The translations under genes and the position numbers were made by a program. From assembly GCA_020632075.1 (NCBI GenBank), contig JACKGH010000002.1, forward strand, positions 75,454 to 139,453: a DNA stretch of 64,000 nt, in the 5' to 3' direction. Positions 4,144-20,034 of this stretch are shown in pieces. Positions within the stretch are counted from its first letter, which is position 1; every line of letters begins with the position of its first letter. Below the pieces are notes generated by a model. The model saw only the letters and a list, made by a program, of their open reading frames with translations. It did no database searches and had not been told where the DNA came from. The DNA is from Candidatus Nomurabacteria bacterium. GTDB lineage: Bacteria > Patescibacteriota > Minisyncoccia > Phycocordibacterales > UBA918.

Positions 4144-4152
4144 AGGAAAAAG

Positions 4153-5076: not shown

Positions 5077-5083
5077 ATGCTAA

Positions 5084-5767
5084 TTATAAAACGTACTTAC
5101 CAGTTGCGTCATCACGCACAATGCGACCGCCGTCCATAGTAATAACCCGTCGTTCGATCTCGTCGATCACACCCTTGTTGTGTGTGGTCATAATGACGGT
5201 CGTACCAAGATCATTGATCTTGCGGAGGATCTGGACTACTTCATAGGTAGCGATCGGGTCAAGGTTGCCGGTTGGCTCATCAGCAATGATGATATCTGGT
5301 TGATTGACGATCGCACGAGCGATCGCAACACGCTGCTTCTCACCCCCAGAAAGCTCATGCGGGAAGTTCCATGCTTTATCCTCCAAGTCTACAAGTGCCA
5401 GTGCTTGCGGCACATTTTCGGCGATCTCGATGTCACTGCGTCCATTAGCTTCCATCGCAAACGCGACGTTTTCATACGCAGTCTTGTGTGGCAGCAACTT
5501 GAAGTCCTGAAAGACCGTACCAATCTTACGGCGGTAGTGCGGCAACTTGGTCTTCGGGATACGATGCACATCGAGTGACTCAAAGAAGACCTGTCCATGA
5601 GACGGTCGATCTTCCGCAATGATCATCTTAAGGAGGGTTGTCTTGCCTGCACCGGAGTGACCGACAATTGAGACGAATTCTTTAGGTTCTACTTGAAACG
5701 TAACCTCTTGGAGCGCGGCACTACGACCGTCGTTATACACCTTTGAAACGTTATCAAAGTAGATCAT
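5084..5767 (-). CDS. ftsE: cell-division ATP-binding protein FtsE
   Basis: Walker A GHSGAGKTTLLK, signature LSGGEKQRVAIARA, 227 aa. Confidence 0.85.
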   Translation of the reverse strand: MIYFDNVSKVYNDGRSAALQEVTFQVEPKEFVSIVGHSGAGKTTLLKMIIAEDRPSHGQVFFESLDVHRIPKTKLPHYRRKIGTVFQDFKLLPHKTAYENVAFAMEANGRSDIEIAENVPQALALVDLEDKAWNFPHELSGGEKQRVAIARAIVNQPDIIIADEPTGNLDPIATYEVVQILRKINDLGTTVIMTTHNKGVIDEIERRVITMDGGRIVRDDATGKYVL

Positions 5768-5918
5768 ACACTTTGTTTCTTACTTCTATCTTCACTCGTT
5801 CGGTCATGTAAATGCTTTACAGCATTTACGCGACTCTCACTCATTCGATAGTAAATCATATCGGGGACAGTATACCATGGTAGAGCAAAGCTCAAAACTA
5901 TACTATTAGACCGCTACA

Positions 5919-6803
5919 TTACTCGGTCTTTGCCGCAGCAGCAGCCTCAATAAATGGCTCAATATCACCAGCTAAGACTGCTTCAACATTGCGAACTTCC
6001 AGGTTAAAACGATGATCTTTTACGAGTTGATACGGATGTAACACATACGAGCGAATCTGACTTCCCCACTCGATCTTAAGACTCTTTTCAACCGACAAAC
6101 CTTGCAGTTCACGACGGCGCTGCTCTTCTTCAAAGGCATAGATCTTACCTGCCAACAGCGCGAGGCCTTTTTCGCGATTCTGCTGCTGCGACCGCTCGGA
6201 AGAAATATTGACTGAGATGTTGGTCGGCTTATGGACGATCCGTACTGCTGTCTCGCGCTTGTTTACATTTTGTCCACCCGCGCCACCAGAACGCGCGAAA
6301 GAGATCTCAAGATCTTCCTCTTTGAGCTCCACGGCGCTCACGTCTTCAAGTCGCGGAGACACTTCCACCAATACGAACGAGGTCTGGCGTTTGCCATTAC
6401 TATTAAACGGTGAGATGCGCACCAAGCGGTGTACACCCGACTCGTACTGAAGTGCACCATAGGCGCCCTTCCCTTGCACTTCAAAAGTAATATTTCGATA
6501 GCCATTATGATCATTGGCGTTGCTATCGATCACCATCACATTCCAATTCTTCCCCTCAGCATAGCGCTGATACATCTCGACCAGCATGCGTGCAAAATCT
6601 TCAGCGTCGTCACCCCCAGCGCCCGCCACGATCGTAAAGACTGCGTCACTACGGTCATACTTCCCTTTTCCGTCAGCCGCATCCTTGAGTTCCTGAAGTT
6701 CCTTGATCATCGCCTGTGCTGCCGCGGGGTCATTCCAAAAAGTCGGCTCGAGCATCGCCGCCTCGATCTCTTGTATTCGTGCTTGGGTTTGTTCGTTATT
6801 CAT
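5919..6803 (-). CDS. prfB: peptide chain release factor 2
   Basis: SPF tripeptide and GGQ motif ([18 protein letters not shown]). Start taken at [14 protein letters not shown] (ATG 6803..6801). The longer ORF up to 6947 would overlap the upstream gene by 150 nt. Confidence 0.8.
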
Positions 6804-7290
6804 TTGGATGAAATTGGTGTCCGAGCGGAAGTGGCTCTTGTGCGACCGCCATGAGCCACTGCTTGCACGTACCCCATTTGCGGCACAACCAACGATCAAA
6901 GAATTCCTCTCGATCGTATACTTGATCTGGCCCATTCCACGGGTCATGGATGATCAACGTCTCGTCATCTATAGACACTACCACACCGTAGTGGTCTTCG
7001 TCTTCATCTGGCTCAATAAAACGAACGATCGGAGGGATCGAGAGACTGATGAGATACTGTAGTTCTTCTAGAGTTGAGCCATTGTTCACATAACAATGAA
7101 ATCCAAGTGCAGTAGCAAGTTGCTGCATACGATCCTTACGGGTGCCCGAATCGTCGTTAGTACCAAGTGCCTCAGCAAGCGCAGCTTCTGACGCACGCTT
7201 GCCATAGTACGCAAACACCATCTGCAGCGAGGTCGGGCCACAGGTGTATTCTTTGTCTTGTTTAAAAAATGGCACATCTAGTTTTGACAT
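6796..7290 (-). CDS. stand-alone papain-like cysteine peptidase, Peptidase_C39-like
   Basis: [16 protein letters not shown] catalytic-Cys block with downstream His/Asp. Start taken at [11 protein letters not shown]. Confidence 0.5.
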
Positions 7291-7320
7291 GCCGAAGAGT
7301 ATAGCAGGAAAATAAAAAAT

Positions 7321-7348
7321 GGGCGCGGTCCTGGCGGACCGCGCCCCT
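7321..7348 (-). terminator. intrinsic terminator of the GNAT gene
   Basis: gggcgcggtcc/ggaccgcgccc hairpin with a T-run on the minus strand. Confidence 0.55.
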
Positions 7349-7349
7349 G

Positions 7350-7874
7350 TTATACATCGAGCACCCACACCACAGTCTCATCGCCGCTCTCCTTTGTGCG
7401 TGGCCGAAACCCCATTCTGGCATAGAAACCAGCGTTGTCTTTCTTGGGGCTATTGCTCAACTCAAAGCGAAACTGCTCATAGGTCTCTGCCCATCGATCG
7501 AGTGCTGCCACCTGCAACGAGCGCAATACTTCAGAGGCAAAGCCCATGCGATGATGAGATGCGAGCGTCACGACATTGTTGATATACACATGTGCTCGCG
7601 GGAACGTCGTTGCAAGCGACGCTTGCGCTGTACTCACAATACGACGTCCGTAGAGCAGAAACACAATGATCTCAGAGTCAGACACTAAGCGAGCGGGGAG
7701 TTGCAGCGGCACGGCGCTAGATGCTTCACCGTGTAGTTGAGTCATCAGGGAACGATACTGTTCCTCGACCACTTCATCTGGCAACACATTGTACACTTCC
7801 CGAGAAATCAGGACCTGCACTTCATTACCTTGAATGTTCACAGTACCGTCTCCTAAAGAAAACTGCCAGTACAA
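7350..7874 (-). CDS. GNAT family N-acetyltransferase
   Basis: C-terminal RMGFASEVL...NAGFYARMGF acetyl-CoA-binding pattern. Confidence 0.6.
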   Translation of the reverse strand: MYWQFSLGDGTVNIQGNEVQVLISREVYNVLPDEVVEEQYRSLMTQLHGEASSAVPLQLPARLVSDSEIIVFLLYGRRIVSTAQASLATTFPRAHVYINNVVTLASHHRMGFASEVLRSLQVAALDRWAETYEQFRFELSNSPKKDNAGFYARMGFRPRTKESGDETVVWVLDV

Positions 7875-7901
7875 TAGTCCAACTTGTACATAAATACAAG
7901 A

Positions 7902-7930
7902 CAGCGGCGCCCGCTACGCGGGCGCCGCTG
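7902..7930 (-). terminator. hairpin 3' of tRNA-Thr(GGT)
   Basis: cagcggcgcccgc TAC gcgggcgccgctg followed by a T-rich run. Confidence 0.5.
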
Positions 7931-7940
7931 TCTTTGTTGA

Positions 7941-8012
7941 GCCAATGTCCAGGATTGAACTGGAGACCTCATCCTTACCATGGATGCGCTCTACCGACTG
8001 AGCTACATTGGC
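7941..8012 (-). tRNA. tRNA-Thr(GGT)
   Basis: Reverse complement GCCAATGTAGCTCAGTCGGTAGAGCGCATCCATGGTAAGGATG... Anticodon loop ATGGTAA, T-arm TCCAGTTCAATCCTGGA. No CCA encoded. Confidence 0.8.
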
Positions 8013-8216
8013 GAGTGAGTGACAAAGCGAGTTTACTCGCTTTGGATTTCTGAGAAAAATACAATGTCAGAGCTTGCTCGGACAGTGATTTTTTTCGAAG
8101 AAATCAAATGTGTTGACACATTTTGTTCGAACGAAGGCAATGTATGATTCTCATACATTGGCAACTTTCGTGCGGGTAGCATACCAAATCATTTCAGATA
8201 TCGCCACTTTTTTTGA

Positions 8217-8288
8217 GCCATCTCCGAGGATTGAACTCGGGACCTTAGCGTTACGAATGCTACGCTCTACCAACTGAGCTAAGATGGC
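8217..8288 (-). tRNA. tRNA-Thr(CGT)
   Basis: Reverse complement GCCATCTTAGCTCAGTTGGTAGAGCGTAGCATTCGTAACGCTA... Anticodon loop TTCGTAA. No CCA encoded. Confidence 0.8.
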
Positions 8289-8376
8289 ATGACCAATATT
8301 GTAGACAAAAGTAAATCGCAATTCAAATGAACGTATCAATCATGCCTCACAAATAAACAAAAACCGCTGATGCAAA

Positions 8377-8628
8377 TCAACGGTTGTTTTTTGCTCGAAT
8401 GAGTAGTGGCTGTACTCTAAGCAGTAAAAAAGCAAAGAGTCTTTGAACGATTTTTGTATACTTCTCAATACGTTTAACACCTTCTGCATTTTTAGCCACT
8501 CCCTCGAAATTCAATTTGGCTATCAACCGTACATACTTTGCTATTGTAACAGTCAAAACAAAAGCCACTAACTCAACAAGCACATATGCGACAACTAGTA
8601 GCATAACTATGATTAATACCATTTCCAC
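8377..8628 (-). CDS. small hypothetical membrane protein (83 aa), AT-rich islet between tRNAs
   Basis: GTG start 6 nt after an AAAGGAG SD. One TM helix plus a basic amphipathic tail. Local GC about 37 %. Confidence 0.4.
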   Translation of the reverse strand: MEMVLIIVMLLVVAYVLVELVAFVLTVTIAKYVRLIAKLNFEGVAKNAEGVKRIEKYTKIVQRLFAFLLLRVQPLLIRAKNNR

Positions 8629-8719
8629 AAAACACTCCTTTCGTTTGTGTGTAAATCCTCTTTAAAACTACTTGAATTTGGTGAGGTGTCAACAATTTTC
8701 TAAATACCAACTAAACAGC

Positions 8720-8748
8720 TTGTAAAAATGTAAAAAACCAGATATACT
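8720..8748 (+). promoter_or_regulatory. sigma70-like promoter for tRNA-Asp
   Basis: TTGTAA-N17-TATACT, ending 11 nt before the tRNA 5' end. Confidence 0.5.
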
Positions 8749-8759
8749 CTTGCCACTTT

Positions 8760-8836
8760 GCGCTGGTAGCTCAACTGGTTAGAGCACCCGCCTGTCACGC
8801 GGGAGGTTGCGGGTTCGAGTCCCGTCTGGCGCGCCA
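8760..8836 (+). tRNA. tRNA-Asp(GTC), CCA encoded
   Basis: GCGCTGGTAGCTCAACTGGTTAGAGCACCCGCCTGTCACGCGGG... Anticodon loop CTGTCAC, T-arm GCGGGTTCGAGTCCCGT, then GCCA. Confidence 0.85.
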
Positions 8837-9021
8837 CAAAGTAAAACACCGACTGTTTGTCGGTGTTTTACTTTGTCAGCGACAGAAGCTGGCAAACTGC
8901 TTTGCCAGCGTCGGGGGCGAGAAAGTCGGAACGATGTGAGGAAGAATGACGAACGAGTGAGGCGGGGTCGCGAAAAATTTTCGGAGAAAATTTATTTGTG
9001 ACCGAGTCCCGTCTGGCGCGC
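8837..9021 (+). repeat. conserved tRNA-downstream structured element, copy A, ending in a 19-nt direct repeat of the tRNA-Asp 3' end (9003..9021)
   Basis: Two hairpins, then a block cgatgtgagga..gacgaac..g.gg.ggggtcgcg.aaaa-hairpin-tgtgaccgagtcccgtctggcgcgc. About 85 % identical to 39170..39300, with compensatory changes in the aattttc/gaaaatt stem. Confidence 0.5.
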
Positions 9022-9034
9022 AGGAAGAGCAAAA

Positions 9035-9061
9035 GGCCGGCCCCTTCGGGGCCGGCCTTTT
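9035..9061 (+). terminator. bidirectional intrinsic terminator
   Basis: ggccggcccc TTCG gggccggcc plus tttt. Confidence 0.6.
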
Positions 9062-9132
9062 GTGTTCTTATCTTCTCGCTCACCACTCCATAAAAACAAA
9101 ACTCCCACGAGGAGAGTTTTGTGAAATATCTG

Positions 9133-9206
9133 TGTCGACGGGAGGAATCGAACCTCCGACCTTGGGTTTATGAGTCCCACGCTCTAACCGTCTGAGCTAC
9201 GCCGAC
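9133..9206 (-). tRNA. tRNA-Met(CAT), subtype uncertain
   Basis: Reverse complement GTCGGCGTAGCTCAGACGGTTAGAGCGTGGGACTCATAAACCCAAGGTCGGAGGTTCGATTCCTCC... The GGG/CCC anticodon stem and AAGGTCG variable loop are initiator-like, but G1-C72 is paired. Confidence 0.75.
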
Positions 9207-9352
9207 AAGTGAGAAGTAGAATAGCAAAGTCTACTTGGATATTCTAGCTTCGAACGCAGTCGGGGCAAGCTTTGCTTACAACGACATGCACGAAACAGTG
9301 GCGCTAGAGTACACTATTTCCCTGCTTCCTTCAACAGTTTTATCCATTCGCA

Positions 9353-10207
9353 CTACTGTTGCACACAGTACTCATCCAAGACATCTTTTAGATCTGGACG
9401 ATCCGCTGCGTAGGTAAGGATGGCTCGCAGATAGTTCTCTGGGTCCCCGGTAGTGATCCAAGCACCACCCTCAACCGCTTTTGCCAGGAATCTCCCCCCT
9501 TCAGCGATGTAGTTCTTGACCGCATCTACGATCCACAATTCATCTCCTTTCCCTCGCTCGGTACGCGCCAAGATATCCACGATCTCTCGGTTAAGGATCA
9601 TCCGACCAAAGCCGGCGTGTCGCGATGGTGCATGTGCTTTATCTGGCTTTTCAATGATATCTTCAAGCTCAAGACCGTCTTCACGGTACTTCACGATACC
9701 GTATTTCTCCACATCAGCTTCAGCCACTTCCTGCACACCGATCATCGGAGCTTGTTCTTTTTTGTATAGTTCAACCAGCTGCTTCGTGAACGAGACTTCA
9801 CTCTTCACCAGATCGTCTCCAAAAGCATAGACGAACGGTTCATCACCGATCAGATTTGCTGCTGAAAGCAAGGGCGTACCGTTTCCGTACGGCCCCTTCT
9901 GTCGCACGTATACGAAGTTCGCCATTTCTGAAATCCGACGCACTTCAGCCAAACGTCTTTCTTTACCAGTCTTTTCAAGACTACGCTCAAGTTCAAACGA
10001 TCGATCGAAGTGATCCTCAAGTGGCTTTTTGTCCCACCGGGTCACCATGATGATATCTTTGATCCCCGCCTCAACCAACTCTTCTACCAAATACTGAATG
10101 ATCGGCTTATCAATGATCGGCAACATTTCCTTCGGCTGCGATTTGGTAGCAGGAAGCAGACGAGTCCCCGAACCAGCAACAGCAATAACAGCTTTCGTAA
10201 TATTCAT
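9353..10207 (-). CDS. galU: UTP--glucose-1-phosphate uridylyltransferase
   Basis: AVIAVAGSGTRLLPATKSQPKEMLPIIDKPIIQY N-terminal signature. A TATAAT box sits 14 nt upstream of the ATG. Confidence 0.85.
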   Translation of the reverse strand: MNITKAVIAVAGSGTRLLPATKSQPKEMLPIIDKPIIQYLVEELVEAGIKDIIMVTRWDKKPLEDHFDRSFELERSLEKTGKERRLAEVRRISEMANFVYVRQKGPYGNGTPLLSAANLIGDEPFVYAFGDDLVKSEVSFTKQLVELYKKEQAPMIGVQEVAEADVEKYGIVKYREDGLELEDIIEKPDKAHAPSRHAGFGRMILNREIVDILARTERGKGDELWIVDAVKNYIAEGGRFLAKAVEGGAWITTGDPENYLRAILTYAADRPDLKDVLDEYCVQQ

Positions 10208-10248
10208 AGAGTGGTCACATTATACTGCATCATGCCGAGCAGACAAAA

Positions 10249-10268
10249 GCCCCACTTGCAGGGGGCTT
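10249..10268 (-). terminator. terminator of the membrane-protein gene
   Basis: gcccc acttgca ggggc followed by tttt on the minus strand. Confidence 0.45.
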
Positions 10269-10288
10269 TGAAAACGTGCACGGTTACC

Positions 10289-10621
10289 TTACATTGCGCT
10301 TTTTTGTTTTTCCTTCAGATAGAGATAGCGAGCAGATTCACAGACTGCCATCGTTGCTAACGGTGGCCCCAAAAACACACTCGATCCCAACACTACCCAT
10401 CCGGTCAATTCAAGCTCGATGAACCCAAATTGCCACATTACGACAACGAGCAAACCGACGGCCCAAGCCGCGATGATCATGAACCATAGCAGTATCACGT
10501 CGCCTGGCCGTAAGCGGATGTACCGGTTTGTGCTATGGAACACATACGTGATCCGTAACTTTGCATAAAGCATAACCATCGCATGAGCTGCCATTAACGG
10601 CAGATTCGTTAGCGCTTTCAA
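10289..10621 (-). CDS. hypothetical membrane protein (110 aa)
   Basis: Two TM helices, no recognisable motif. Confidence 0.4.
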   Translation of the reverse strand: MKALTNLPLMAAHAMVMLYAKLRITYVFHSTNRYIRLRPGDVILLWFMIIAAWAVGLLVVVMWQFGFIELELTGWVVLGSSVFLGPPLATMAVCESARYLYLKEKQKSAM

Positions 10622-10690
10622 GGCATTCTCCTAAGTGATAACCTGCGACAACCATACAAGACAATACTAAAATTAACAACCCAGGCAGAC

Positions 10691-10735
10691 AAAAGAAAAG
10701 CGGCCTGACATTTTGTCAGGCCGCTTTTCTTTTCT
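10691..10735. terminator. bidirectional hairpin
   Basis: gaaaagcggcctgac atttt gtcaggccgcttttc with T/A runs on both sides. Confidence 0.5.
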
Positions 10736-10964
10736 TGTTGCAGAGATACGTCAGCATTGGAATCAAGTACTTGAATCACTGGAGAATCTAAGACTCTAAG
10801 TTACAGCAGACAGCGAAACCGGTAAGACGGGGGTATGGGGGCATTGTTCTGAAAAGCAGTTATGTAATTACGGTGACAAATTCCTACTGTTCAAAGTAAT
10901 CTCTCAGTACATTTTGATTACTACGATAGAGTGAGCTTAAGCGGGATTTATATAGAAGTAAAAA

Positions 10965-11549
10965 TTAATTAAGTTTTTCACCTCTATTTTTCAAGAATTG
11001 CTCTACTGAAGCGACCGTATTTTTAGTAGTAGAACTAGAAAAATTATGTGATTTTACTGGATCAATTGCTTTTCCTAGAAATTCTTCATATTCAGCATCA
11101 AGTATTACATTTGGTTTGACTGATCGAATTTTTTCTAGAAATTCATGTAGCTTTTTGTCATTAAATCCATATTCGTTAATGGCTACATGTTTTAGATGGT
11201 CACCTTCCTCAACATACAACAACATTTTAATTCCAAAGCCCGGTATGACCATTCTTGGTACTCGTAATATATACTTAACTTCAGGCAAACGCACTTCAAC
11301 TTTTTTGAATGAATCATGCCAATTAATAATGATGTTCATGTTGTCTACAATTTTTACGTACATATTGGTACTAAGAAGATAAACATAGACAGTAGCCACT
11401 ATCATTCCTCCGACAACTGGTATTGCACCTTCCGTGAACAAGTGGCCTCTCTGAGCACCAACAACAGTAAAGAAACTGAATATTGCAACAACGAGCCAGA
11501 AAATGAACATTGACGGTTTATATACCTTTGTATTCATTACTTTATCCAT
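10965..11549 (-). CDS. candidate immunity protein for the RHS C-terminal toxin: two N-terminal TM helices plus a soluble domain
   Basis: Starts 6 nt downstream of the RHS gene. About 33 % GC against about 50 % genome. This is the classic polymorphic-toxin/immunity position. Confidence 0.5.
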   Translation of the reverse strand: MDKVMNTKVYKPSMFIFWLVVAIFSFFTVVGAQRGHLFTEGAIPVVGGMIVATVYVYLLSTNMYVKIVDNMNIIINWHDSFKKVEVRLPEVKYILRVPRMVIPGFGIKMLLYVEEGDHLKHVAINEYGFNDKKLHEFLEKIRSVKPNVILDAEYEEFLGKAIDPVKSHNFSSSTTKNTVASVEQFLKNRGEKLN

Positions 11550-11554
11550 AAATC

Positions 11555-14500
11555 TTAATTATCATCCCCGTCATCTCTTTCTAGAGATTTGTATGCTCCT
11601 ATAGTAACACTCAGTTCAAATGTACCTTGTATAACCTGCCCGGCAAATCCAGCTTTATTACCAACAGGAGAAGTAGTCAATGCAGTTTCAAATAGGAATC
11701 CCGCCGTACCACCTGCACCAGATGCTCCAACTTGCGAGCCACTTACTTTTCCATCAAACAGGTAACTCTCTGCTGCGGCAGCAGCTGGTCCAACAACCAA
11801 AGGACCTGATTTTTTAATAGCGGCTGATCCCGCAGTTCCCATGCCAAACAGATAACTACTTCCAGATTCTAGTGGACCGCCGTCAAACGATCCATCCTGC
11901 TTATCAACGTATCCACTAAAGGCAGCATTTGAGATTCCAGTTACTGCAGCTGATCTGGCCATCTGAGTTGATATTGGAACACCAAGTTCTGGGGCAGCTA
12001 AAGTTAGAGCCGCCAAACCAGCTACTGTATAAACTGCTTGTGCCTGTGGTGAAGTAGCAGCGTTCACTGCAGTCTGTCCAGCTTGTTGATAACTCCTTGT
12101 CTCTCGACTGATGTACCCACCAGACAAGTTATCAACTCTTTGCATATTACCCCAGAACATTGCACTGCTTTCTCCATTTGGATCAAACTTGATCAACGGA
12201 TTATTTTCAACATACGAGTAGCTATTCAGTTTCTGAGGATTGGTGAGTAGGTTTGGTTTATCTAATCTGATATGCAATGGGTCCTGAGAAGTGAAGCGTC
12301 CTGTATCGCCGGCGTAATACCTTGCTCCCATGTAGCTCAAATCCGTCTCATCATCGTACTCATGTCCCGTAAACCGCTTGGTCTGATTCTGGTTTCCATA
12401 CTGAGCATCAATCCTTGTAGCTCCAAACGGGTAGTAATCGAGAACTTGAGCGGTGTAACCGATTCCGTCAGTTACCACCCTCGTTGAATTAAGATGGTCT
12501 AAGTGATTGTGGTATGTGAGTGCTCCTGCGCCACTTCCCTCCACAGTTGCTACTAACATGTCTCCAGCGTAAATATGCTTGGTAGTCGTCCCAGTATCGG
12601 TGATCTCGTAGTTAGCGAAAGGATAATAAGTCGTTCCTTCGGAAGTGATCTTGAAGACACGTGAGCCGTTGTGATCATATCCATAGCTGGTCGTAGCAGT
12701 TCCCTCATCTGATTCGACAAGCTGATTGCGGTAATTCCAAGTGTTTGTGGTACTAGCACTAGTAGACGCTAAGTTACCATTTTTATCGTAGGTGTACGTA
12801 ACCCCGTTAATAGCTGTAGCGGCGTGAGGGTTGGCATACCCTGTTTCCGCATACGTATACGAACCTTGGTCAGATTTACTCAGGATGTTTCCGATTGGAC
12901 TATACGTATATGTACGACTATACGGAGTAGTTGTAGCTAAGGTGGTAGAAGCACTGGTGAGACGATACAGATCATCGTAGCCATAGGTAGTAGTTGCAGA
13001 ACTTACAACACCAGAGGAATCAGCGATTTGAGTAATATTTCCAACCGAATCGTATACATAGTTAACTCTTTGAACCACTTCATAAAGAGCGTATGGGTCA
13101 GTGCCTGTCGCCAGAACAAAAGTTGCTGTTGAAGTGCTCCAAATACCCTCTTCGTCCTCGTCATCCCAGAATTTAATTCTCCAGTAGTACAGTGTACTCG
13201 AAGCTAATGTTGAACCTCCGTAGGAAATACTAGGAGTTGTACTCCCTTGTGACGTAGTGGCGAGTGCTGTTTTACCACTGTCCCAAATTGTACTGCCAAA
13301 CCCGCTATCATCATCAACTTGAATCTGATAGTTTACCGCTTGATCACCTGAATCAGGATCATTGTAAACTGCAGTAAATTCGGGTGCACTATCTGAAACG
13401 GCTGTTGGATTTGCGCTACCTTCTGTCTTAAGTTCTGTTGGTGATGTCGGTGCCTGATTGTTAAGTGTGTATTCAGCATACATCGTTAATCGAATACTTG
13501 AAACTTGTGTGGCAGTGAAGCTGCTTGGCCATCCTTCAAAGCTTCCTCCAGTCTCATACTTGTACGCGTTTGATACAGAGTCGTAGTAATCAACTGAAGG
13601 GATCTGAGGCCAATACATAATCCAATATGGAGTACTCCCTGTAACACTGAGATTGATATTACTACTAATCCAAGCAGGTGTAGTAGTTATAGTTTGATTC
13701 CCAGTATCAACTGCCAATCTTGAGTTTGGCGACCCACTTGAGTCCGAATAGATAGCAGTTCCAATCACAGTTGAACCGGACTTCTGTTTTCTTGTGTAAA
13801 CCTTTATTGAACTAACTGTACCAGACTGTCCAGGAGTACCCTTAATGCCACCATAGTCTTTCCCTGAATGTACTGACAAACTCCCCCCGATTGAAGTATC
13901 TCCGAAGGTAGGGTCAACGAAAACTGGGTACTCAGCTGTGTCTAGAAATTCCTGTGGAACTGTGACTATCAACTCACCATCTACAATAGATAAAGCGCCC
14001 CATACTTCGTCACCACTCGAATCTGCAATCTTAGGTCTGTATATATGGAACACTTTTCCTGCACCATAATTAACCCCTCCAAGCACATGTCCACTCAACT
14101 CTTTGTGATAGACAGCGTATGATCCAACGATGTTCTCTGGCCTTTCTTTTCCTTCACCAATCTCCTCTTCTGTTAATTCAGGTTGATAGAAGAAATCAAG
14201 ATTTTCATACCCACTTAAAGAGAATCTGAATTTGTTACTGTCAGGCTTTTCTGCTAAAACTACCTCGATCTCTAGACCTCCGTTTTCCATCTGTTCATCG
14301 CTAGACAAAGGATACACATGGACCTCCTTTGATTGATCTTGGTTCTTCCAGCGAATAAGATTTCCGGCACTGAAGTCTGCTTCTTGAATAGAAATGTCAT
14401 TGTAACTGATTGAGAAGTCAACTTTTTCATTCCATTTTTTAAAACTCACTTCTGGTCGATTCTTTGCAACCTCAACTTCTAAACCATTTACCTTACTAAG

Positions 14501-17500
14501 AGCGAGTTTGCCTCCCAACTCTTTGAAATCAGCCTTGTCAGCCTTTGAATCAGAAACATAAGTTGCTCTCTTATCAATTTTGTTGATTTGACCAGCAGCA
14601 GTAGACTTGCTCTCTTTAGTCTGTTGGCTAACCACATCAATTACATTGCCACTTGAAGTAGAGGTTGTAGCAAAAACTACAGGGACTGTTGTTGTAGAAG
14701 TTGTTGATTTTTCTTGTACGATGTTAAGCCCGTCACTATTTCCTGTTTCTGAAACACCCCAAACTATCTCAGGATTTTCATCCGCCACTTGGCTTTCTCC
14801 TAAATCCAGATTGTCATGTGGAGATGTATCAGAAGAGATTGATCCTGAAGACAAAAGCTCAAAATCAGGAGAGTCTAGCAGCAGCATGATTTCGACCATT
14901 TCCTCACCAGGACCACCAGAACCAGCGGTAGAGGTTGCGGTGGTAACAATAGAGCTGAGGCGATACAACTCACTAGCATCATACGTCTTCGTTGTCGTAG
15001 CACCATTGCTGTGTACTTGCTGTGTAATCAAGTCATGTGGACCATACTCAAAGTTATTCACCACATCAGCAAACGAGCCCCCGCTTTCTCGTTGTTCAAC
15101 CTTTTCAAGCTTATTGGCTTTATTATAGGTGTATCTGACCTCAGAGTCATCTGGATAAGTGAGTAGAGTTTGATTGCCTAATCGGTCGTATTCATATTCA
15201 GTTGCGTATTCAGTACCAGCAATAGTCTTTGTCTCAGTATCAATTAATCCGTTTGGTGTGTAGGTGTAGGTTGTGGTGGCGCTTTCGTTTGCAACAAAAC
15301 ATAGCTGTGAAGCACCATTGGTACAGTTATCGTAGACGTATGTCACGTCAGTATAGCCAGTACCGAGATAATCTTCCGTCAGTACCCGATTCACACCATC
15401 GTACGTGTAGTTCACCACTTGCCCCTTCGGGTCAGTGGTAGAAGACACATTGCCAGCATCGTCATAACTAAACAGCCATGTTCCGTAATCTGTGTCAGAT
15501 GTATCATGCAAGTCTTCCAGTGAGGTGCGCCGAGACAAGCCGTCATAAGTCAGATTGCGAACATTGCCAGCAGCATCAGTTATCTTGATTAAGTCACCCC
15601 TTGCGTTCCAGTCGTAAACAGTATCGTATGAACTAACTCCTTCCTCTTCAGTAACTAGAGTTAGACGTCCATAGGCATCATACTCGAAGATCTTGTCATT
15701 GCTCGCTGCATCAGTAACTGTTTCTTGCCACTGGTCGTAGCTAGTGCTGGTAGTACCAACTACTGTCCCAACAGCCGTAATGCGAGCCAAAGCATCATAA
15801 ACATAGCTCGTCATCAAATCTCCGTCGGTGGTAGCATTGGTGCTGGTAGTACCAGTACTGAAGTAAGGGAGAGACTCAGCCTTCAAGAGACCATTGTCGC
15901 CATATATATAGTCACGTACTGCGTACTGAGTACTTCCTTCAGCTTCGACTCTTTCTTGGATCACCTGACCAAAACCATCATAATAAGTGTATTTACTATG
16001 TGAAGTTGAACCGTCGAGGTAATCGGTCTGTTGCACACTTATCGCCCCAGCAGTATCAGTGTATGTATAAGCTGCAATTTGCACTTGGCTACCAGTCTGA
16101 GGGTCAGGCATATACTTCGCTGTTGGTCGACCAAAGCCATCATAGATAGTGACAAACACTTCTCCATTTGCGTTGGTAGTCGTACCTACCTGACCAGTAC
16201 GATAATCATACTCATACTGAGTGTTGTGTCCTTCAGCATCAGTAGTTGAAGCAACGAATAGATTGTATGTGTCGTAAGCAAAAAGCGTGACGTTGCTATT
16301 AGGGTCGGTCTTAGTGAGAATGTTACCGTACGAATCATAAGTCAACTCTGTATCCACATAAGTGGAGCCAATAACCCAATCTTGTTGTTTGGTAAGATTT
16401 CCTGTCGTAACCGAACCGAGAGATTGATTGTCGTAGTAGTACCTAGATTCTTGAACCTTGGTGCTTGAGTCATCCTCAACCGTGATTTTGGATGGGAGTA
16501 CCAAGTCACTGCTCGTTGCATATTCATAGGTAGTTTCGCGATCGTCGGTTCCAGTATCTGTAAAAGTACCGTCAGTACTACCGCTAACTTCTCCCCACTC
16601 TGTCTTGGTTAACATCGAGCCATGATCACCACTATATATATACGAATTAGCGGAGGCTTTCTTATCACTGTCGCCATCATAGTCGAGCTGCAAATCACTC
16701 TCAAGTTTGACAAAAGTGCTACTGCTACTAAGGGAGGACGTGGCGTAATTGTATCGATTTAGTTGATAAAGGTTATCTGAAAGGTCAGTCTTTTCAGTAC
16801 GATACGCAACACCGAAGAGTGCTTCACCATCAATTTCTTCTTCTGATGACGTAGCGGCTTCATTCCCTTGATGGTAATACGTAATTTCTTTTCCTAAATC
16901 TGTAGTCTTTGTTACTTTACCGAAACCAACAAATCGATGGTCGTAAATGTCGTTCCGGTCTAAATAGTAGTATGCACCCTCATAGACATACTCATCTGTA
17001 GTTTCAGTAACTGACGATGTTTTGGTTACAGACTTTACAACCTGAAGTGAGATTGGAACTGTATTGTCTGTACTTGATTGCCAAAGTGGCTGATACTCGA
17101 TAACTGTCGCGGTGTCAGACACAGGATCAGTTATTGTCGCGAGTCGGAAGTCAGGACCTGGATTCAAATATACACGCATGTTGGATGAGGTGTATTGATA
17201 GGCAATGTCGGCCAGGCCGTCACCGTTAAAGTCAGCTATACGAGCATTCAACCCATCAGAAACATCAGACGACAAGTAAATCGGTGACGGCAGGCCAGGG
17301 AAACTCGATATGGTTGCACCCCAACCCGTTCCCGTATTCAGGCTCACACTAAGAGCACTACTGCCGTATGTACTCTGAAACCCGTTCACCTTATCAGCTA
17401 GACCATCACCATTGAAATCAAAATACTGTTGGGTGATGCCGTTGTTGTGGTCGACGTAAGAAGAATGATCTAAAGACGTCTCATGTTCAAAACCCCCTCC

Positions 17501-19093
17501 ACCACTATTAAGGTAAACCCACATCTGGCTGGTGGTGTACTGGTAAGCAATGTCAGCTAATCCATCACCGTTAAAGTCAGCTACTCGGGCGTTGTGGCCG
17601 TCCACCGTATCTGATGAAAAATACACCGTTGACGGCAAGCCTGACAGGAAACTCGATGATGCCGTTTCCCAACCCGTTCCCGTATTCAGGCTCACACTAA
17701 GAGCACTACTGCCGCTGTCACTCTGGAAAGCATTCACCTTATCAGCTAGACCATCACCATTGAAATCAAAATACTGTTGGGTGATGCCGTTACTACTATC
17801 AACATTCGCGGAATGGTTTAGTGATGATTCGTACTCAAAAGTATTTTCACCCGCGTTAAGGTAAACCCGCATCTGGCTGGTGGTGTACTGGTAAGCAATG
17901 TCAGCTAATCCATCACCGTTAAAGTCAGCTACTCGGGCGTTGTGGCCGTCTGGATCATCGGACGATAGATAGATTGGTGACGGCAAGCCAGGGAAGGTTG
18001 ACGTTGCCCCAACCCATCCACTACCATTACCAAAAATCACTCCAAGTGCATTGCTACCATAGCTACTTTCGAACCCGTTCACTCTATCAACCAAACCATC
18101 ACCATTGAAATCAAAATACTGTTGGGTGATGCCGTCATTATGATCAACATTCGCGGAGTGATTTAGAGCACTTTGATAGACCCAATCACCTGTACCTGCT
18201 CCATACTCAAACACGACAGCCGGCTTGGCCACATCAGTTGTTGGTGTAATGGAGTTTAACCGACCATCACTGTAAGACAGATCGTAAGTAGCAAACGTGT
18301 CACCGCTTTTTTTAACCTCTATCTTACTGATGTGATCCCCAGTATAAACTCGAAACCCTGACCTATAACTAATCCCACGTTTTGACGAACTCGCAACTGT
18401 AAATACTACGGTATACGGACCATAGGAAATGGTCGACGGATATAATTGCCCATCGCTATTAATATAGGTGTAGCTTATTTCATTTCCGTTACTATCAGTA
18501 CTACTGGCGAGATACCATCTGTAGATACGATTCGGATCGTCTGGATCTGCCATATGGGAGGAGAAAATATGGGTAGTACCATCTTTATCTGTTGTCTCCC
18601 AGGTACTTTGATTTGGATGACTATATACTCGAAAATTACCAAAATCTACTTCGGGTCTGTAATCGCTGCCATCCGCAATCAATTCTCCATCTAAGGACGA
18701 AACAAAAACCGGATCATCATAAATCGTATTTACCCCCTTACGGCTTGAGAGACTAATGTATGGAATACTGTCCTTCCAAGCAGCACCATAAACACCAACC
18801 ACATTCTCTTCATGTGAATTGTACAAAAGCGACACTGTTGGAGTATGTCCATTAACGCCCGGAGGCAAAGCAATTTCATACTGATAATCAAAAGCGCCAG
18901 AAGCATTGTCGTACGATGACCAAAGTGAGACTGGCTGGACGGCGTTTTGTGTTGTTCTCGCAGGATCGCCAACTACAAGTGAAGCATGAGCAAAAGGTAT
19001 GTCACCAAATGGACCAATGAATAAAATGACCGCCAAGAATAAACTGGCGGTTTTAGTAAGAAACGGTTTGCGAATAGTGTTTTTGTAAGTCAT
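11555..19093 (-). CDS. secreted 2512-aa TcB/TcC-like polymorphic toxin: signal peptide, SpvB-like domain, three tandem FG-GAP/VCBS repeats, RHS/YD-repeat shell with an internal insert of about 600 aa, RHS core with DPxG autoproteolysis motif, and a 205-aa Gly/Ala-rich C-terminal variable domain
   Basis: SpvB-like block LPPGVNGHTPTVSLLYNS..GAAWKDSIPYISLSSRKG. Three repeats of about 110 aa with FDFNGDGLAD. Many YD repeats (YTYDSYGNILTKTD..). Core YYPFGATR...RFTGHEYDDETDLSYMGARYYAGDTGRFTSQDPL...NPLIKFDPNGE. Confidence 0.85.
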   Translation of the reverse strand: MTYKNTIRKPFLTKTASLFLAVILFIGPFGDIPFAHASLVVGDPARTTQNAVQPVSLWSSYDNASGAFDYQYEIALPPGVNGHTPTVSLLYNSHEENVVGVYGAAWKDSIPYISLSSRKGVNTIYDDPVFVSSLDGELIADGSDYRPEVDFGNFRVYSHPNQSTWETTDKDGTTHIFSSHMADPDDPNRIYRWYLASSTDSNGNEISYTYINSDGQLYPSTISYGPYTVVFTVASSSKRGISYRSGFRVYTGDHISKIEVKKSGDTFATYDLSYSDGRLNSITPTTDVAKPAVVFEYGAGTGDWVYQSALNHSANVDHNDGITQQYFDFNGDGLVDRVNGFESSYGSNALGVIFGNGSGWVGATSTFPGLPSPIYLSSDDPDGHNARVADFNGDGLADIAYQYTTSQMRVYLNAGENTFEYESSLNHSANVDSSNGITQQYFDFNGDGLADKVNAFQSDSGSSALSVSLNTGTGWETASSSFLSGLPSTVYFSSDTVDGHNARVADFNGDGLADIAYQYTTSQMWVYLNSGGGGFEHETSLDHSSYVDHNNGITQQYFDFNGDGLADKVNGFQSTYGSSALSVSLNTGTGWGATISSFPGLPSPIYLSSDVSDGLNARIADFNGDGLADIAYQYTSSNMRVYLNPGPDFRLATITDPVSDTATVIEYQPLWQSSTDNTVPISLQVVKSVTKTSSVTETTDEYVYEGAYYYLDRNDIYDHRFVGFGKVTKTTDLGKEITYYHQGNEAATSSEEEIDGEALFGVAYRTEKTDLSDNLYQLNRYNYATSSLSSSSTFVKLESDLQLDYDGDSDKKASANSYIYSGDHGSMLTKTEWGEVSGSTDGTFTDTGTDDRETTYEYATSSDLVLPSKITVEDDSSTKVQESRYYYDNQSLGSVTTGNLTKQQDWVIGSTYVDTELTYDSYGNILTKTDPNSNVTLFAYDTYNLFVASTTDAEGHNTQYEYDYRTGQVGTTTNANGEVFVTIYDGFGRPTAKYMPDPQTGSQVQIAAYTYTDTAGAISVQQTDYLDGSTSHSKYTYYDGFGQVIQERVEAEGSTQYAVRDYIYGDNGLLKAESLPYFSTGTTSTNATTDGDLMTSYVYDALARITAVGTVVGTTSTSYDQWQETVTDAASNDKIFEYDAYGRLTLVTEEEGVSSYDTVYDWNARGDLIKITDAAGNVRNLTYDGLSRRTSLEDLHDTSDTDYGTWLFSYDDAGNVSSTTDPKGQVVNYTYDGVNRVLTEDYLGTGYTDVTYVYDNCTNGASQLCFVANESATTTYTYTPNGLIDTETKTIAGTEYATEYEYDRLGNQTLLTYPDDSEVRYTYNKANKLEKVEQRESGGSFADVVNNFEYGPHDLITQQVHSNGATTTKTYDASELYRLSSIVTTATSTAGSGGPGEEMVEIMLLLDSPDFELLSSGSISSDTSPHDNLDLGESQVADENPEIVWGVSETGNSDGLNIVQEKSTTSTTTVPVVFATTSTSSGNVIDVVSQQTKESKSTAAGQINKIDKRATYVSDSKADKADFKELGGKLALSKVNGLEVEVAKNRPEVSFKKWNEKVDFSISYNDISIQEADFSAGNLIRWKNQDQSKEVHVYPLSSDEQMENGGLEIEVVLAEKPDSNKFRFSLSGYENLDFFYQPELTEEEIGEGKERPENIVGSYAVYHKELSGHVLGGVNYGAGKVFHIYRPKIADSSGDEVWGALSIVDGELIVTVPQEFLDTAEYPVFVDPTFGDTSIGGSLSVHSGKDYGGIKGTPGQSGTVSSIKVYTRKQKSGSTVIGTAIYSDSSGSPNSRLAVDTGNQTITTTPAWISSNINLSVTGSTPYWIMYWPQIPSVDYYDSVSNAYKYETGGSFEGWPSSFTATQVSSIRLTMYAEYTLNNQAPTSPTELKTEGSANPTAVSDSAPEFTAVYNDPDSGDQAVNYQIQVDDDSGFGSTIWDSGKTALATTSQGSTTPSISYGGSTLASSTLYYWRIKFWDDEDEEGIWSTSTATFVLATGTDPYALYEVVQRVNYVYDSVGNITQIADSSGVVSSATTTYGYDDLYRLTSASTTLATTTPYSRTYTYSPIGNILSKSDQGSYTYAETGYANPHAATAINGVTYTYDKNGNLASTSASTTNTWNYRNQLVESDEGTATTSYGYDHNGSRVFKITSEGTTYYPFANYEITDTGTTTKHIYAGDMLVATVEGSGAGALTYHNHLDHLNSTRVVTDGIGYTAQVLDYYPFGATRIDAQYGNQNQTKRFTGHEYDDETDLSYMGARYYAGDTGRFTSQDPLHIRLDKPNLLTNPQKLNSYSYVENNPLIKFDPNGESSAMFWGNMQRVDNLSGGYISRETRSYQQAGQTAVNAATSPQAQAVYTVAGLAALTLAAPELGVPISTQMARSAAVTGISNAAFSGYVDKQDGSFDGGPLESGSSYLFGMGTAGSAAIKKSGPLVVGPAAAAAESYLFDGKVSGSQVGASGAGGTAGFLFETALTTSPVGNKAGFAGQVIQGTFELSVTIGAYKSLERDDGDDN
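11558..12172 (-). other. C-terminal variable domain of the RHS protein (toxin tip), Gly/Ala-rich with GxxxG glycine-zipper-like runs
   Basis: Lies after DPNGE: ...GMGTAGSAAIKKSGPLVVGPAAAAAESYLFDGKVSGSQVGASGAGGTAGFLFETALTT... Confidence 0.5.
17230..18200 (-). repeat. three near-identical tandem repeats of about 330 bp inside the RHS gene (FG-GAP-like units)
   Basis: The protein repeats NHSANVD.N.GITQQYFDFNGDGL.D.VNGF.S.YGS.AL.V...G.GW...S.F.GLPS..Y.SSD..DG.NAR.ADFNGDGLADIAYQYT.S.M.VYLN three times. Nucleotide blocks are also near-identical. Confidence 0.7.
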
Positions 19094-19234
19094 GGGGAAA
19101 TAATGACATAGTGTTGATAAACTATTTCTAAAATATCAGACAAAAAGTTTCCGGCCAAACACTGAAAAAGTGGACAAGTTGTGAATAACAAAAAGCTGGG
19201 CATGTACACCCAACCTTTTGTCATACTAAATTTG

Positions 19235-19305
19235 TTGCGGGGCCCGGAATCGAACCGGGGTCTGGAGGTTATGAGCCTCCCGAGGTACCTCTCCTCTACC
19301 CCGCT
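19235..19305 (-). tRNA. tRNA-Met(CAT) with an A1·A72 mismatch (initiator-like feature)
   Basis: Reverse complement AGCGGGGTAGAGGAGAGGTACCTCGGGAGGCTCATAACCTCCAGACCCCGGTTCGATTCCGGGCCCCGCAA. Anticodon loop CTCATAA. Short 4-nt variable loop. No CCA encoded. Confidence 0.7.
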
Positions 19306-19395
19306 ATATATTTTCTTCTTAATTGCCTTTTACAAAGCAATTAACCAACTCGTGGCGTGGGTAAGAAAATACACTATTTTTGAGCACTTGGCAAG

Positions 19396-20034
19396 TTAGG
19401 TTACCCCAAACTCGTTGAAAACACGTTGGTAGCGACCGATCGTTTCGTGTGCTAAACGCTTCGTCAGTACGAAGTCAGCTCCGTCATGTGCAATGCGGTT
19501 ACGTACCTTGTGCGCTTCCCACGCATCATCAAGCGAGGATAGCTGACTTGAAGAAATGCTCTTTAGCCGTTCACCAAGAGAACTGCCGATATAGCCTCTC
19601 TGTTTCAAGACATCATCGAGAATGATATCAGCCTCAATGATCGCCAACTTCCAGTCATTTGGGTTATCGGAATCACTATGTTTTAAAACATCATCAAGAC
19701 GACTCGCTCGGTGTTCACCGCGAAATTGTTCGGCATAAAGTTTTTCGTCATCGCGCAACTTTTGGATCTGCAGCCCAAGGTACAGATTCTTCTTGACCGA
19801 TGCATACACATACAGCACCAAAAGAATGATCGAAAAGATGTACGCCAAGATCGTATACAATGACCAAAGCGAACTGATGAAATTCCAGAGCCCATCAAAG
19901 GGGATCGAACTAAAATCAACCGTACCAGCGCCAGTCCCACCAGACGGATCAACACCTAAAGACACCGCCGGAATAGTTGGAACGTCGGGCGAAGTAGTTG
20001 GTGTAATAATGTCAGGATCAATGTATGTGGCCAT
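19396..20034 (-). CDS. hypothetical membrane-anchored protein with a C-terminal HEPN-like Rx4H motif
   Basis: Thr/Pro-rich N-terminus, one TM helix (LYTILAYIFSIILLVLYVYA), a helical domain, and ...AHKVRNRIAHDGADF near the C-terminus. Confidence 0.45.
   Translation of the reverse strand: MATYIDPDIITPTTSPDVPTIPAVSLGVDPSGGTGAGTVDFSSIPFDGLWNFISSLWSLYTILAYIFSIILLVLYVYASVKKNLYLGLQIQKLRDDEKLYAEQFRGEHRASRLDDVLKHSDSDNPNDWKLAIIEADIILDDVLKQRGYIGSSLGERLKSISSSQLSSLDDAWEAHKVRNRIAHDGADFVLTKRLAHETIGRYQRVFNEFGVT

Follow-up and report, generated by a model that had tools for sequence, protein, structure and literature searches.

The window examined here, a stretch of 64,000 nucleotides (64 kb) from contig JACKGH010000002.1 of a Candidatus Nomurabacteria bacterium, belongs to the Patescibacteria or candidate phyla radiation (CPR); on its reverse strand it encodes a 2512-residue protein of the rearrangement hotspot (RHS) type, whose last 205 residues form a C-terminal tip, followed at once by a gene for a 194-residue protein with two predicted transmembrane (TM) helices. 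Are the tip and the downstream protein a toxin and its dedicated immunity partner and, if so, where would the toxin act? The explanation that best fits the evidence, with a probability of roughly 0.6, is a Sec-exported RHS cassette of the TcdB/TcaC type with a membrane-targeting tip and an immunity partner. Within this explanation, the claim that the tip and the 194-residue gene constitute a toxin/immunity cassette is very probable in its own right.

Linkage of the tip to its partner gene

The stop codon of the RHS gene (TAA) and the ATG of the downstream gene are separated by 5 nucleotides (gattt), one fewer than counted in the initial annotation, a first reading of the sequence that had correctly recorded a 194-residue product with two TM helices and to which a domain resembling the pleckstrin homology (PH) fold now has to be added. 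Public gene calls begin the gene at Met5, which gives 190 residues. Searched alone with a word index against 5.8 billion proteins, the 194-residue sequence retrieves only itself; a profile built from five tip-adjacent copies retrieves 10 clusters in the same collection, none of which carries a Pfam domain. No Imm family of Pfam is recognised among 12 members, and the window protein has no match to Pfam Imm*, NCBIfam or PADLOC. The immunity profile finds no relative in the species-representative genomes of GTDB, and the sole addition from a scan of metagenome contigs is a frameshifted fragment (L014).

In each of the nine loci with readable upstream sequence (the window, L007, L008, L009, L010, L011/12, L095, L096/97 and L098), a homologue of the partner gene lies directly behind an open reading frame (ORF) of the tip family, at a distance of -11 to +8 nucleotides. 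At L007 the partner is present as two tandem paralogues sharing 44% identity, at L008 and L009 it accompanies orphan tip stubs devoid of RHS shell and signal peptide, and at L096/97 an intact partner stands behind a truncated tip remnant, such remnants also being found at L095 and L098. At L013 the copy is frameshifted and lies next to transposases where the contig ends, and at L008 the apparent C-terminus of another partner copy is found upstream of the orphan tip. The immunity genes of polymorphic-toxin loci show the same linkage, orphan and duplication behaviour (PMC3482391); since linkage, orphans, duplicate and remnant all mirror it, the partner is read as an immunity gene, and the polymorphic-toxin/immunity cassette proposed from the window alone is supported by the linkage at all nine loci. 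Orphan tip/immunity pairs, which the initial annotation had thought worth seeking elsewhere in the genome, exist at other loci, as the modules of L008 and L009; in the window, to which this and the other genome-level absences given below refer, tblastn detects no second RHS copy and no further orphan tip or immunity gene.

At L011, positions 1-904 hold the end of another toxin ORF and a 151-residue candidate immunity gene, both upstream of the tip-bearing RHS module; because of this second pair, L011 can be regarded as an array of toxin/immunity modules.

Composition and mobility of the cassette

GC content at third codon positions (GC3) was preferred to overall GC, because glycine and alanine codons raise the GC content of the tip. 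Low overall GC was rejected as a mark of the cassette, the difference between tip and immunity gene in this measure being partly one of amino-acid composition. GC3 amounts to 0.525 in the pooled housekeeping genes, 0.38 in the whole RHS body and 0.45 over the last 250 codons of the core, and to 0.26 in the tip and 0.27 in the downstream gene. The step from 0.45 to 0.26 at the core/tip junction is significant (Fisher p 2e-5), a change-point scan places the break near residues 2300-2334, and a like step, with a tip that matches its partner, is present at the core/tip junctions of L007, L010 and L011 (Fisher p 3e-6 to 1e-12). Tip and partner are one compositional unit, distinct from the RHS core and from the host genome. 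The AT-rich patch that had been ascribed to the downstream gene (33.5% GC against 48.5% for the window) is real for that gene and is not confined to it, the tip being equally AT-rich by GC3.

The tip family is found on cores that are 38-64% identical to that of the window (38% at L011) and on orphan stubs. Because such diverged cores and orphan modules carry it, the unit of tip and partner appears to move by recombination at the conserved core end. L009 provides a case in point: the core end of its main RHS protein is 57% identical to that of the window and bears an unrelated tip (hhalign probability 0.1), and the window-type tip is located in an orphan module downstream. Between the window and L007, the two proteins are collinear and no tip has been exchanged. 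Taken together, the GC3 steps at the window and three other loci, the divergent cores, the orphans and the arrangement at L009 agree with the earlier proposal of C-terminal displacement, and a mobile toxin/immunity cassette attached in this way is well supported.

The tip of the L009 main RHS protein (396-2343) is also rich in glycine and alanine and was considered as a distant family member, a relationship rejected at the hhalign probability given above. It opens with a strongly hydrophobic stretch (ELPILIPFIAGAIIGAGTVY…) and is followed by an 80-residue protein with two hydrophobic segments; the two may represent a second, unrelated tip/immunity pair of the membrane type in this lineage.

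A small family of C-terminal tips

The window tip consists of 15.6% alanine, 14.6% glycine and 11.2% serine (41% for the three together) and contains five GxxxG motifs. It has no match in Pfam, NCBIfam, PADLOC, PDB sequences, plasmids (tblastn) or viral contigs, nor among 5.8 billion proteins in a word-indexed search; PDB sequence searches with the tip, the tip profile and the immunity protein return only noise, as do Pfam searches across all six aligned tips (OM14_C, Kinocilin, DUF4781), none of which is recognised by a colicin-type Pfam model at E up to 1. The AlphaFold2 (AF2) model of the tip is all-α, with eight helices, at a low predicted local distance difference test score (pLDDT 47.5), and Foldseek searches with it give nothing below E = 1, a fold comparison that is uninformative at this confidence. 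The description of the last 205 residues as Gly/Ala-rich and devoid of a known toxin fold therefore stands for Pfam, NCBIfam and PDB sequences, and the structural search with the low-confidence model adds a null result.

An exhaustive phmmer search of 1.84 billion cluster representatives finds, besides a fragment of the window protein itself (P0003), only three relatives of the tip: P0002, a 2316-residue RHS protein with 61% identity over the tip, and P0004 (41%) and P0005 (33%), short proteins in which a stub of RHS core end (…NNPLTKTDPTG and …NNPVICHDPTG, respectively) precedes the tip. In all three, the tip begins directly behind an RHS core end of the form …NNPxxxxDPxG. Further members were reached by way of the immunity gene, at L010, L011/L012, L095, L096/97 and L098. 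To judge from these searches, the tip represents a small family without earlier description.

The tip alignment comprises six sequences (residue numbers below are tip positions) and is too variable to yield search patterns. Invariant positions are G52, P61, D90, G110, E135, G141, V148, G154 and P169, and the acidic or polar residues Y88, D90, Q92, D93, D97, E135, D140, Q182 and E186 are invariant or nearly so. Cysteine is absent from all six tips and histidine from four, and no histidine, lysine or arginine is conserved. All six contain 34-41% Gly+Ala+Ser, and 19 alignment columns hold small residues (Gly/Ala/Ser) throughout. The runs of GxxxG noted at the outset are present in the window tip in the number given above; across the family, only one small-residue chain with i, i+4, i+8 spacing is conserved, A150-G154-G158 (A/S-xxx-G-xxx-G/A), with G154 invariant. 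Each tip has three to four marginally hydrophobic segments rich in small residues, with a summed Hessa ΔG (2-9 kcal/mol) under the first percentile of RHS-core windows; the four segments of the window tip (5.5-8.7 kcal/mol) all lie under the first percentile of windows of the RHS body (9.4, with a body minimum of 6.6).

Structure of the partner protein

The AF2 model of the partner, computed from a 10-sequence alignment, reaches a pLDDT of 82.5 and a predicted template modelling score (pTM) of 0.76. Two strongly hydrophobic N-terminal segments are modelled as TM helices (residues 15-33 and 42-61) and are followed by a six-stranded β-sandwich closed by a helix (131-144) and by a helical tail. 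Nearly all Foldseek matches in the PDB are of the PH superfold, among them the N-terminal domain of SSRP1, the middle domains of Pob3 and Spt16 and the PH domains of Sin1 and Avo1, with probabilities up to 1.0, E-values from 7e-3, target TM-scores up to 0.57 and a root-mean-square deviation of 3.4 Å over 89 residues. The order of two TM helices and a PH-fold domain is, in the model, that of bacterial PH-domain membrane proteins; the Pfam family EbsA (PF17255) is approached below threshold in three of 12 members (best 20.1 bits, for a cut-off of 25.9). 

Nine of 11 full-length members carry two to five lysine and arginine residues at the N-terminus, and the loop between the two helices is short and neutral to acidic. 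Because of this charge distribution, the PH-like domain should face the cytoplasm (N-in/C-in). Mean pairwise identity within the family is 22% in the TM region and 48% in the soluble domain.

Proposed mechanism and its alternatives

On the preferred reading, and following what is established for RHS and toxin complex (Tc) proteins, the tip would be stored unfolded inside the RHS cocoon, freed after the DPNG motif by the aspartyl protease and, upon contact, released into a neighbouring cell. It would then act as a non-enzymatic toxin whose Gly/Ala-rich, marginally hydrophobic helices insert into the cytoplasmic membrane of the target and dissipate its membrane potential, in the manner of the C-terminal toxin of Tse5 (Tse5-CT), of the ionophores of contact-dependent inhibition (CDI) systems and of the glycine-zipper LXG toxins. 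Protection of the producer cell and of its relatives would fall to the partner: the toxin would be met inside the bilayer by the two variable TM helices, which would determine the specificity, and the conserved PH-like domain would provide a function common to the family, such as oligomerisation or the binding of the membrane face or of the toxin. The membrane is suggested as the target because of the composition of the tip, the lack of conserved residues of the catalytic type, the zipper motif, the marginally hydrophobic segments, the all-helical prediction (of low confidence) and a partner that is itself a membrane protein. On these grounds we lean towards a toxin acting on the membrane, a mechanism that was, and still is, inferred, now with more circumstantial support than the initial annotation could offer.

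Several observations weigh against it. The model of the tip is of low confidence and matches no fold, and no segment of the tip is as hydrophobic as a canonical TM helix. The best-conserved polar residues of the tip are acidic (D90, D93, D97, E135, D140 and E186), and an active or binding site made of them is conceivable instead. In the partner, it is the cytoplasmic domain that is conserved, which would also fit the neutralisation of a toxin acting in the cytoplasm. Tip and immunity identities across pairs of loci show a weak, non-significant correlation (Pearson 0.58, Spearman 0.21), which was left unused as evidence. Finally, the window encodes no delivery partner: there is no TcA-like gene and no component of a type VI (T6SS) or type VII (T7SS) secretion system.

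The alternative that survives best draws on several of these points: the tip would be a soluble toxin acting in the cytoplasm, either an enzyme without a known fold or a binder of an essential target, which the PH-like domain would neutralise, the TM helices merely tethering the partner where the toxin enters. Characterised RHS tips are mostly enzymes (PMC3482391), the polar residues Y88, Q92 and Q182 have been retained beside the acidic ones just listed, no hydrophobic segment of true TM grade is present, and the domain of the partner that faces the cytoplasm is by far its better-conserved part. No enzyme family, however, is matched at any threshold; the conserved residues include no His, Cys, Lys or Arg, and neither the high content of small residues nor the 19 columns in which they are kept speaks for a soluble catalyst. 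Moreover, cytoplasmic toxins are usually paired with soluble immunity proteins and membrane-active ones with membrane immunity proteins (PMC9637101, PMC11630599). A soluble toxin is thus unlikely, if by no means far-fetched.

The partner could also be conceived as an accessory factor of the RHS protein, such as a membrane chaperone, a helper in export or anchoring or a transporter component like DdE/DdF, protection coming from elsewhere or being unneeded. Its two TM helices and PH-like domain do resemble YdbS and DdE, DdE/DdF, PH-domain proteins of leaderless bacteriocin systems, have been assigned a putative part in transport (PMC8657885), and the tight coupling to the tip, with a 5-nucleotide gap or an overlap, would suit a helper as well. 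Yet the tandem duplicate at L007 and the decay beside transposases at L013 are the behaviour of an immunity gene (PMC3482391). The partner also tracks the tip and not the RHS body, being present with the orphan stubs of L008 and L009 and with the truncated remnants of L096/97, and an accessory role appears improbable. A life attached to hosts and very large surface proteins are known from CPR bacteria, the Ig-like insert of the shell could bind a receptor, and the nearest solved relatives of the core end include teneurin-like proteins, so that a non-toxic, teneurin-like surface adhesin of an epibiotic cell, with the C-terminus as plug or anchor and an unrelated small membrane protein downstream, can be imagined, yet it is highly improbable given the intact autoproteolytic DPxG region, a modular tip carried by unrelated cores and orphan stubs, a tip GC3 unlike that of the core and the nine-fold linkage to the downstream family.

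Within the preferred reading of a membrane-targeting tip with an immunity partner, a bolder version can be put forward only tentatively: a Paceibacteria-type CPR epibiont would place a non-enzymatic glycine-zipper ionophore in the membrane of its host or of a competitor by means of a Sec-exported TcB/TcC-fusion cocoon operating without TcA, and the partner would represent a new class of TM plus PH-fold immunity proteins whose variable TM helices intercept the toxin inside the bilayer and whose conserved domain on the cytoplasmic side brings the neutralisation to completion. If true, this would link RHS immunity mechanistically to the YdbS/DdE type of PH-domain proteins that act against membrane-active bacteriocins, and would provide the first defined antagonistic effector/immunity pair of this CPR branch.

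Comparison with known systems

By every feature that can be checked, the protein belongs to the RHS polymorphic toxins and, among them, to the TcdB/TcaC trafficking class. It displays RHS/YD repeats, a core with an autoproteolysis motif, a tip that is exchanged and occurs in orphan modules, and a downstream candidate immunity gene, recognised as such by genomic linkage. The TcdB/TcaC class is defined by a signal peptide, an SpvB domain and an integrin-like β-propeller N-terminal to the RHS repeats (Zhang et al. 2012, PMC3482391); here, SpvB and FG-GAP_3 domains are found behind an N-terminus that reads as a signal peptide. SpvB, propeller, RHS shell, aspartyl-protease end and variable tip are shared with the BC subunits of Tc toxins (TcdB2-TccC3, YenB/YenC2). 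In contrast to these, one gene covers both B and C and, because a gene for a TcA-like translocator is missing from the window (and from the surroundings of the L007 homologue), the system is not a tripartite Tc (ABC) toxin. By comparison with classical Tc tips, which are enzymes directed at eukaryotes and have no immunity gene, the window tip has a linked immunity gene, and bacterial or self targets are therefore implied.

The closest functional analogue of the tip/partner pair, by analogy of features, would be Tse5-CT/Tsi5 of Pseudomonas aeruginosa (Tse5 = RhsP1, PA2684), in which a pore former encapsulated by Rhs is countered by an immunity protein with two predicted TM regions (PMC9637101, PMC10684867). 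Common to both are the Rhs cocoon, autoproteolytic release (predicted for the window protein) at a conserved core end, the absence of an enzymatic signature, marginal TM or amphipathic helices and a 2-TM immunity protein encoded directly downstream. The similarity ends at the level of sequence: neither the tip nor the six-sequence profile retrieves a Tse5 chain from the PDB at E up to 10 (the matched Tse5 chain has 1121 residues and the toxin fragment possibly lies outside the set), and the Rhs core of Tse5 is matched by the RHS body only. Moreover, Tse5 belongs to the PAAR-like T6SS effectors and comes from a Gram-negative species; the window protein has a signal peptide, an SpvB domain and a propeller, its source is a CPR bacterium, and the window encodes no T6SS; and the window immunity protein, unlike Tsi5, has an additional cytoplasmic PH-like domain.

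In terms of delivery logic, the closest system is WapA. WapA/WapI of Bacillus subtilis and Streptococcus suis likewise combine a Sec-dependent RHS toxin, in their case associated with the cell wall, with monoderm-type cells, contact-dependent competition, a polymorphic tip and an adjacent immunity gene (PMC12704120; PMC3482391). WapA differs in having no SpvB/β-propeller N-terminus. Its tips, as far as described, are mostly nucleases with soluble immunity proteins.

Among membrane-active toxins delivered by other routes, the CDI ionophores of the CdiA-CT EC93 family have a glycine zipper as their sole common element and are paired with membrane CdiI proteins (PMC11630599), and EsxX is a depolarising LXG toxin with a glycine zipper (PMC12744356). 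By its predicted features, the window tip would resemble these all-α, small-residue-rich and highly diverged toxin domains with a GxxxGxxxG-type motif and membrane-embedded immunity. They differ in delivery (CdiA with a type V secretion system (T5SS), LXG with T7SS), show no detectable homology to the tip, which has a single A/S-xxx-G-xxx-G/A chain, and, for the CDI ionophore domains, are predicted as five-helix bundles, compared with a tip of about 200 residues and roughly eight helices predicted at low confidence.

For the partner, the closest architecture is that of YdbS/DdE, proteins of 140-190 residues in which a single PH-fold domain follows two TM helices at the N-terminus; YdbS (2 TM + PHb2), together with YdbT, protects B. 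subtilis against the membrane-active bacteriocin amylocyclicin (PMC8144471, PMC8657885). The window family differs in having no match to the Pfam bPH models, in its extra C-terminal helical tail and in being tied to an RHS tip instead of a bacteriocin operon or a stress regulon. As far as detectable similarity goes, tip and partner both fall outside every described toxin/immunity family.

The type of system is thus a textbook one, its practical value is for that reason modest, and it holds no surprise for a specialist of polymorphic toxins; what is new are two families absent from Pfam, NCBIfam and PDB, both so far limited to a handful of metagenomic contigs related to the CPR lineage. RHS tips constitute a large store of undescribed toxins. 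To our knowledge, almost nothing is known of the means by which CPR bacteria attack other cells or compete with them, and the locus offers a rare view of antagonism genes in this group: an RHS weapon that is secreted and paired with an immunity gene points to bacterial targets and to kin discrimination among CPR bacteria with reduced genomes. Should the tip be an ionophore, it would be an independent addition to the small set of Rhs-delivered pore formers, and an immunity protein of two TM helices and a PH fold would be a tractable model for the neutralisation of a pore former within the membrane.

Anatomy of the RHS protein

Table 1. Features of the RHS locus, with coordinates in the window (aa, amino acids)
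Feature	Coordinates	Strand	Evidence
Candidate cognate immunity gene, 194 aa, 2 TM + PH-like domain	10965..11549	-	AF2, Foldseek, linkage, GC3
Full RHS polymorphic-toxin gene, 2512 aa: signal peptide, SpvB, FG-GAP propeller, RHS shell with large insert, Rhs_assc_core, tip	11555..19093	-	ORF translation, Pfam + NCBIfam
C-terminal tip, aa 2308-2512, 205 aa, Gly/Ala/Ser-rich, predicted all-helical, acidic tail	11558..12172	-	composition, family searches, GC3, AF2
Last part of RHS shell, with RHS-associated core aa 2220-2307 (aspartyl autoprotease/cleavage region), ending ARYYAGDTGRFTSQDP…NNPLIKFDPNG	12173..13123	-	TIGR03696, E 5.2e-19
Insert of ~590 aa in RHS shell, aa 1401-1990: Ser/Thr-rich linker and β-rich domains including Ig_Rha78A_N (aa 1885-1988)	13124..14893	-	Pfam PF25788, E 3.2e-13
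First part of RHS/YD-repeat shell, about aa 660-1400	14894..17116	-	RHS_repeat PF05593, E 1.2e-26, 8 stretches; TIGR01643, E 7.5e-15; partial NF041261
FG-GAP / integrin-like β-propeller repeats, about aa 320-640	17174..18136	-	Pfam FG-GAP_3, E 1.9e-21, 6 stretches
SpvB domain, aa 64-216, TcB-type N-terminus	18446..18904	-	Pfam PF03534, E 1.9e-13
Predicted Sec signal peptide, aa 1-37, MTYKNTIRKPFLTKTASLFLAVILFIGPFGDIPFAHA/S	18983..19093	-	read directly from translation

The RHS gene fills the organisation expected of a TcB/TcC-like protein with a complete core and DPxG signature, as had been proposed, on the evidence of TIGR03696 and of the alignment to YenC2 and TccC3 (Table 1). Its N-terminus resembles a signal peptide, with a basic n-region, a hydrophobic h-region and an AHA-S cleavage-type site (…FAHA/S). 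The core end, ARYYAGDTGRFTSQDP…NSYSYVENNPLIKFDPNG, can be aligned, position by position, with the ends at which YenC2, TcdB2-TccC3 and teneurin-like proteins of the PDB undergo autoproteolysis; it contains the autoproteolysis motif PxxxxDPxG and, upstream, RxYxxxxGRFxxxDP, from which cleavage is predicted, and the boundary to the tip lies at …NNPLIKFDPNG/ESS, residue 2307 being the last of the core. The nearest solved relatives of the RHS protein in the PDB are Rhs, Tse15, Tse5, YenC2, TccC3 and teneurin-like proteins.

Homologues of the shell insert exist in L007 and L009, with a conservation below that of the shell (in parts 24-38% identity). Displayed by the cocoon, the insert might act as a receptor-binding module. 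Inside the FG-GAP region, at 17156-18148, direct DNA repeats (D1/D2) of 300 nucleotides, with 72-83% identity and spacings of 348 and 693 nucleotides, indicate that propeller blades were recently duplicated internally.

The L007 ortholog shares with the window protein 54% identity overall, 64% at the core end and 61% in the tip. Its gene is read as two overlapping ORFs (4083-6017 and 5935-12951), the SpvB/FG-GAP part being apart from the RHS part, which stems either from a frameshift, the contig being a long-read one of low coverage (2.88x), or from a genuine split into B-like and C-like genes.

Host and genomic setting

The PyrG protein encoded in the window shares 79-85% identity with its counterparts in metagenome-assembled genomes of Candidatus Paceibacteria and other Patescibacteria, which identifies the host, at the level of this sequence comparison, as an uncultured Paceibacteria-like member of the Patescibacteria. 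This segment of the genome recurs in several independent metagenome assemblies, where the downstream protein is identical. Housekeeping genes flank the locus (GatA, LigA, RF2, FtsEX, PyrG, a GalU-like nucleotidyltransferase (NTP transferase), PilB and an aminoacyl-tRNA synthetase), and the largest other ORF of at least 150 residues between 19 and 64 kb encodes an 823-residue class I aminoacyl-tRNA synthetase. On one side of the RHS locus is a tRNA-Met gene (19234-19305), on the other a tRNA cluster (7939-9206). That the locus had integrated at this tRNA-Met by way of an att-type direct repeat was considered and ruled out, no such repeat being present across 10200-19400.

Between the immunity gene and the GalU-like gene lies a hydrophobic ORF of 110 residues (10289-10621, reverse strand), which public assemblies (L005, L006) annotate as a gene; it has a host-like GC3 of 0.57 and shows neither a family match nor a counterpart behind the cassette at other loci, and is probably not part of the cassette. 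The tRNA cluster comprises four genes on mixed strands (Thr-GGU, Thr-CGU, Asp-GUC and Met-CAU) and includes an AT-rich spacer (about 8300-8750, GC 0.38-0.39) with short ORFs only. Farther away, at 58716-58790 on the forward strand, both ARAGORN and Rfam call a tRNA-Ile with the anticodon UAU (tat), an uncommon means of reading AUA in bacteria.

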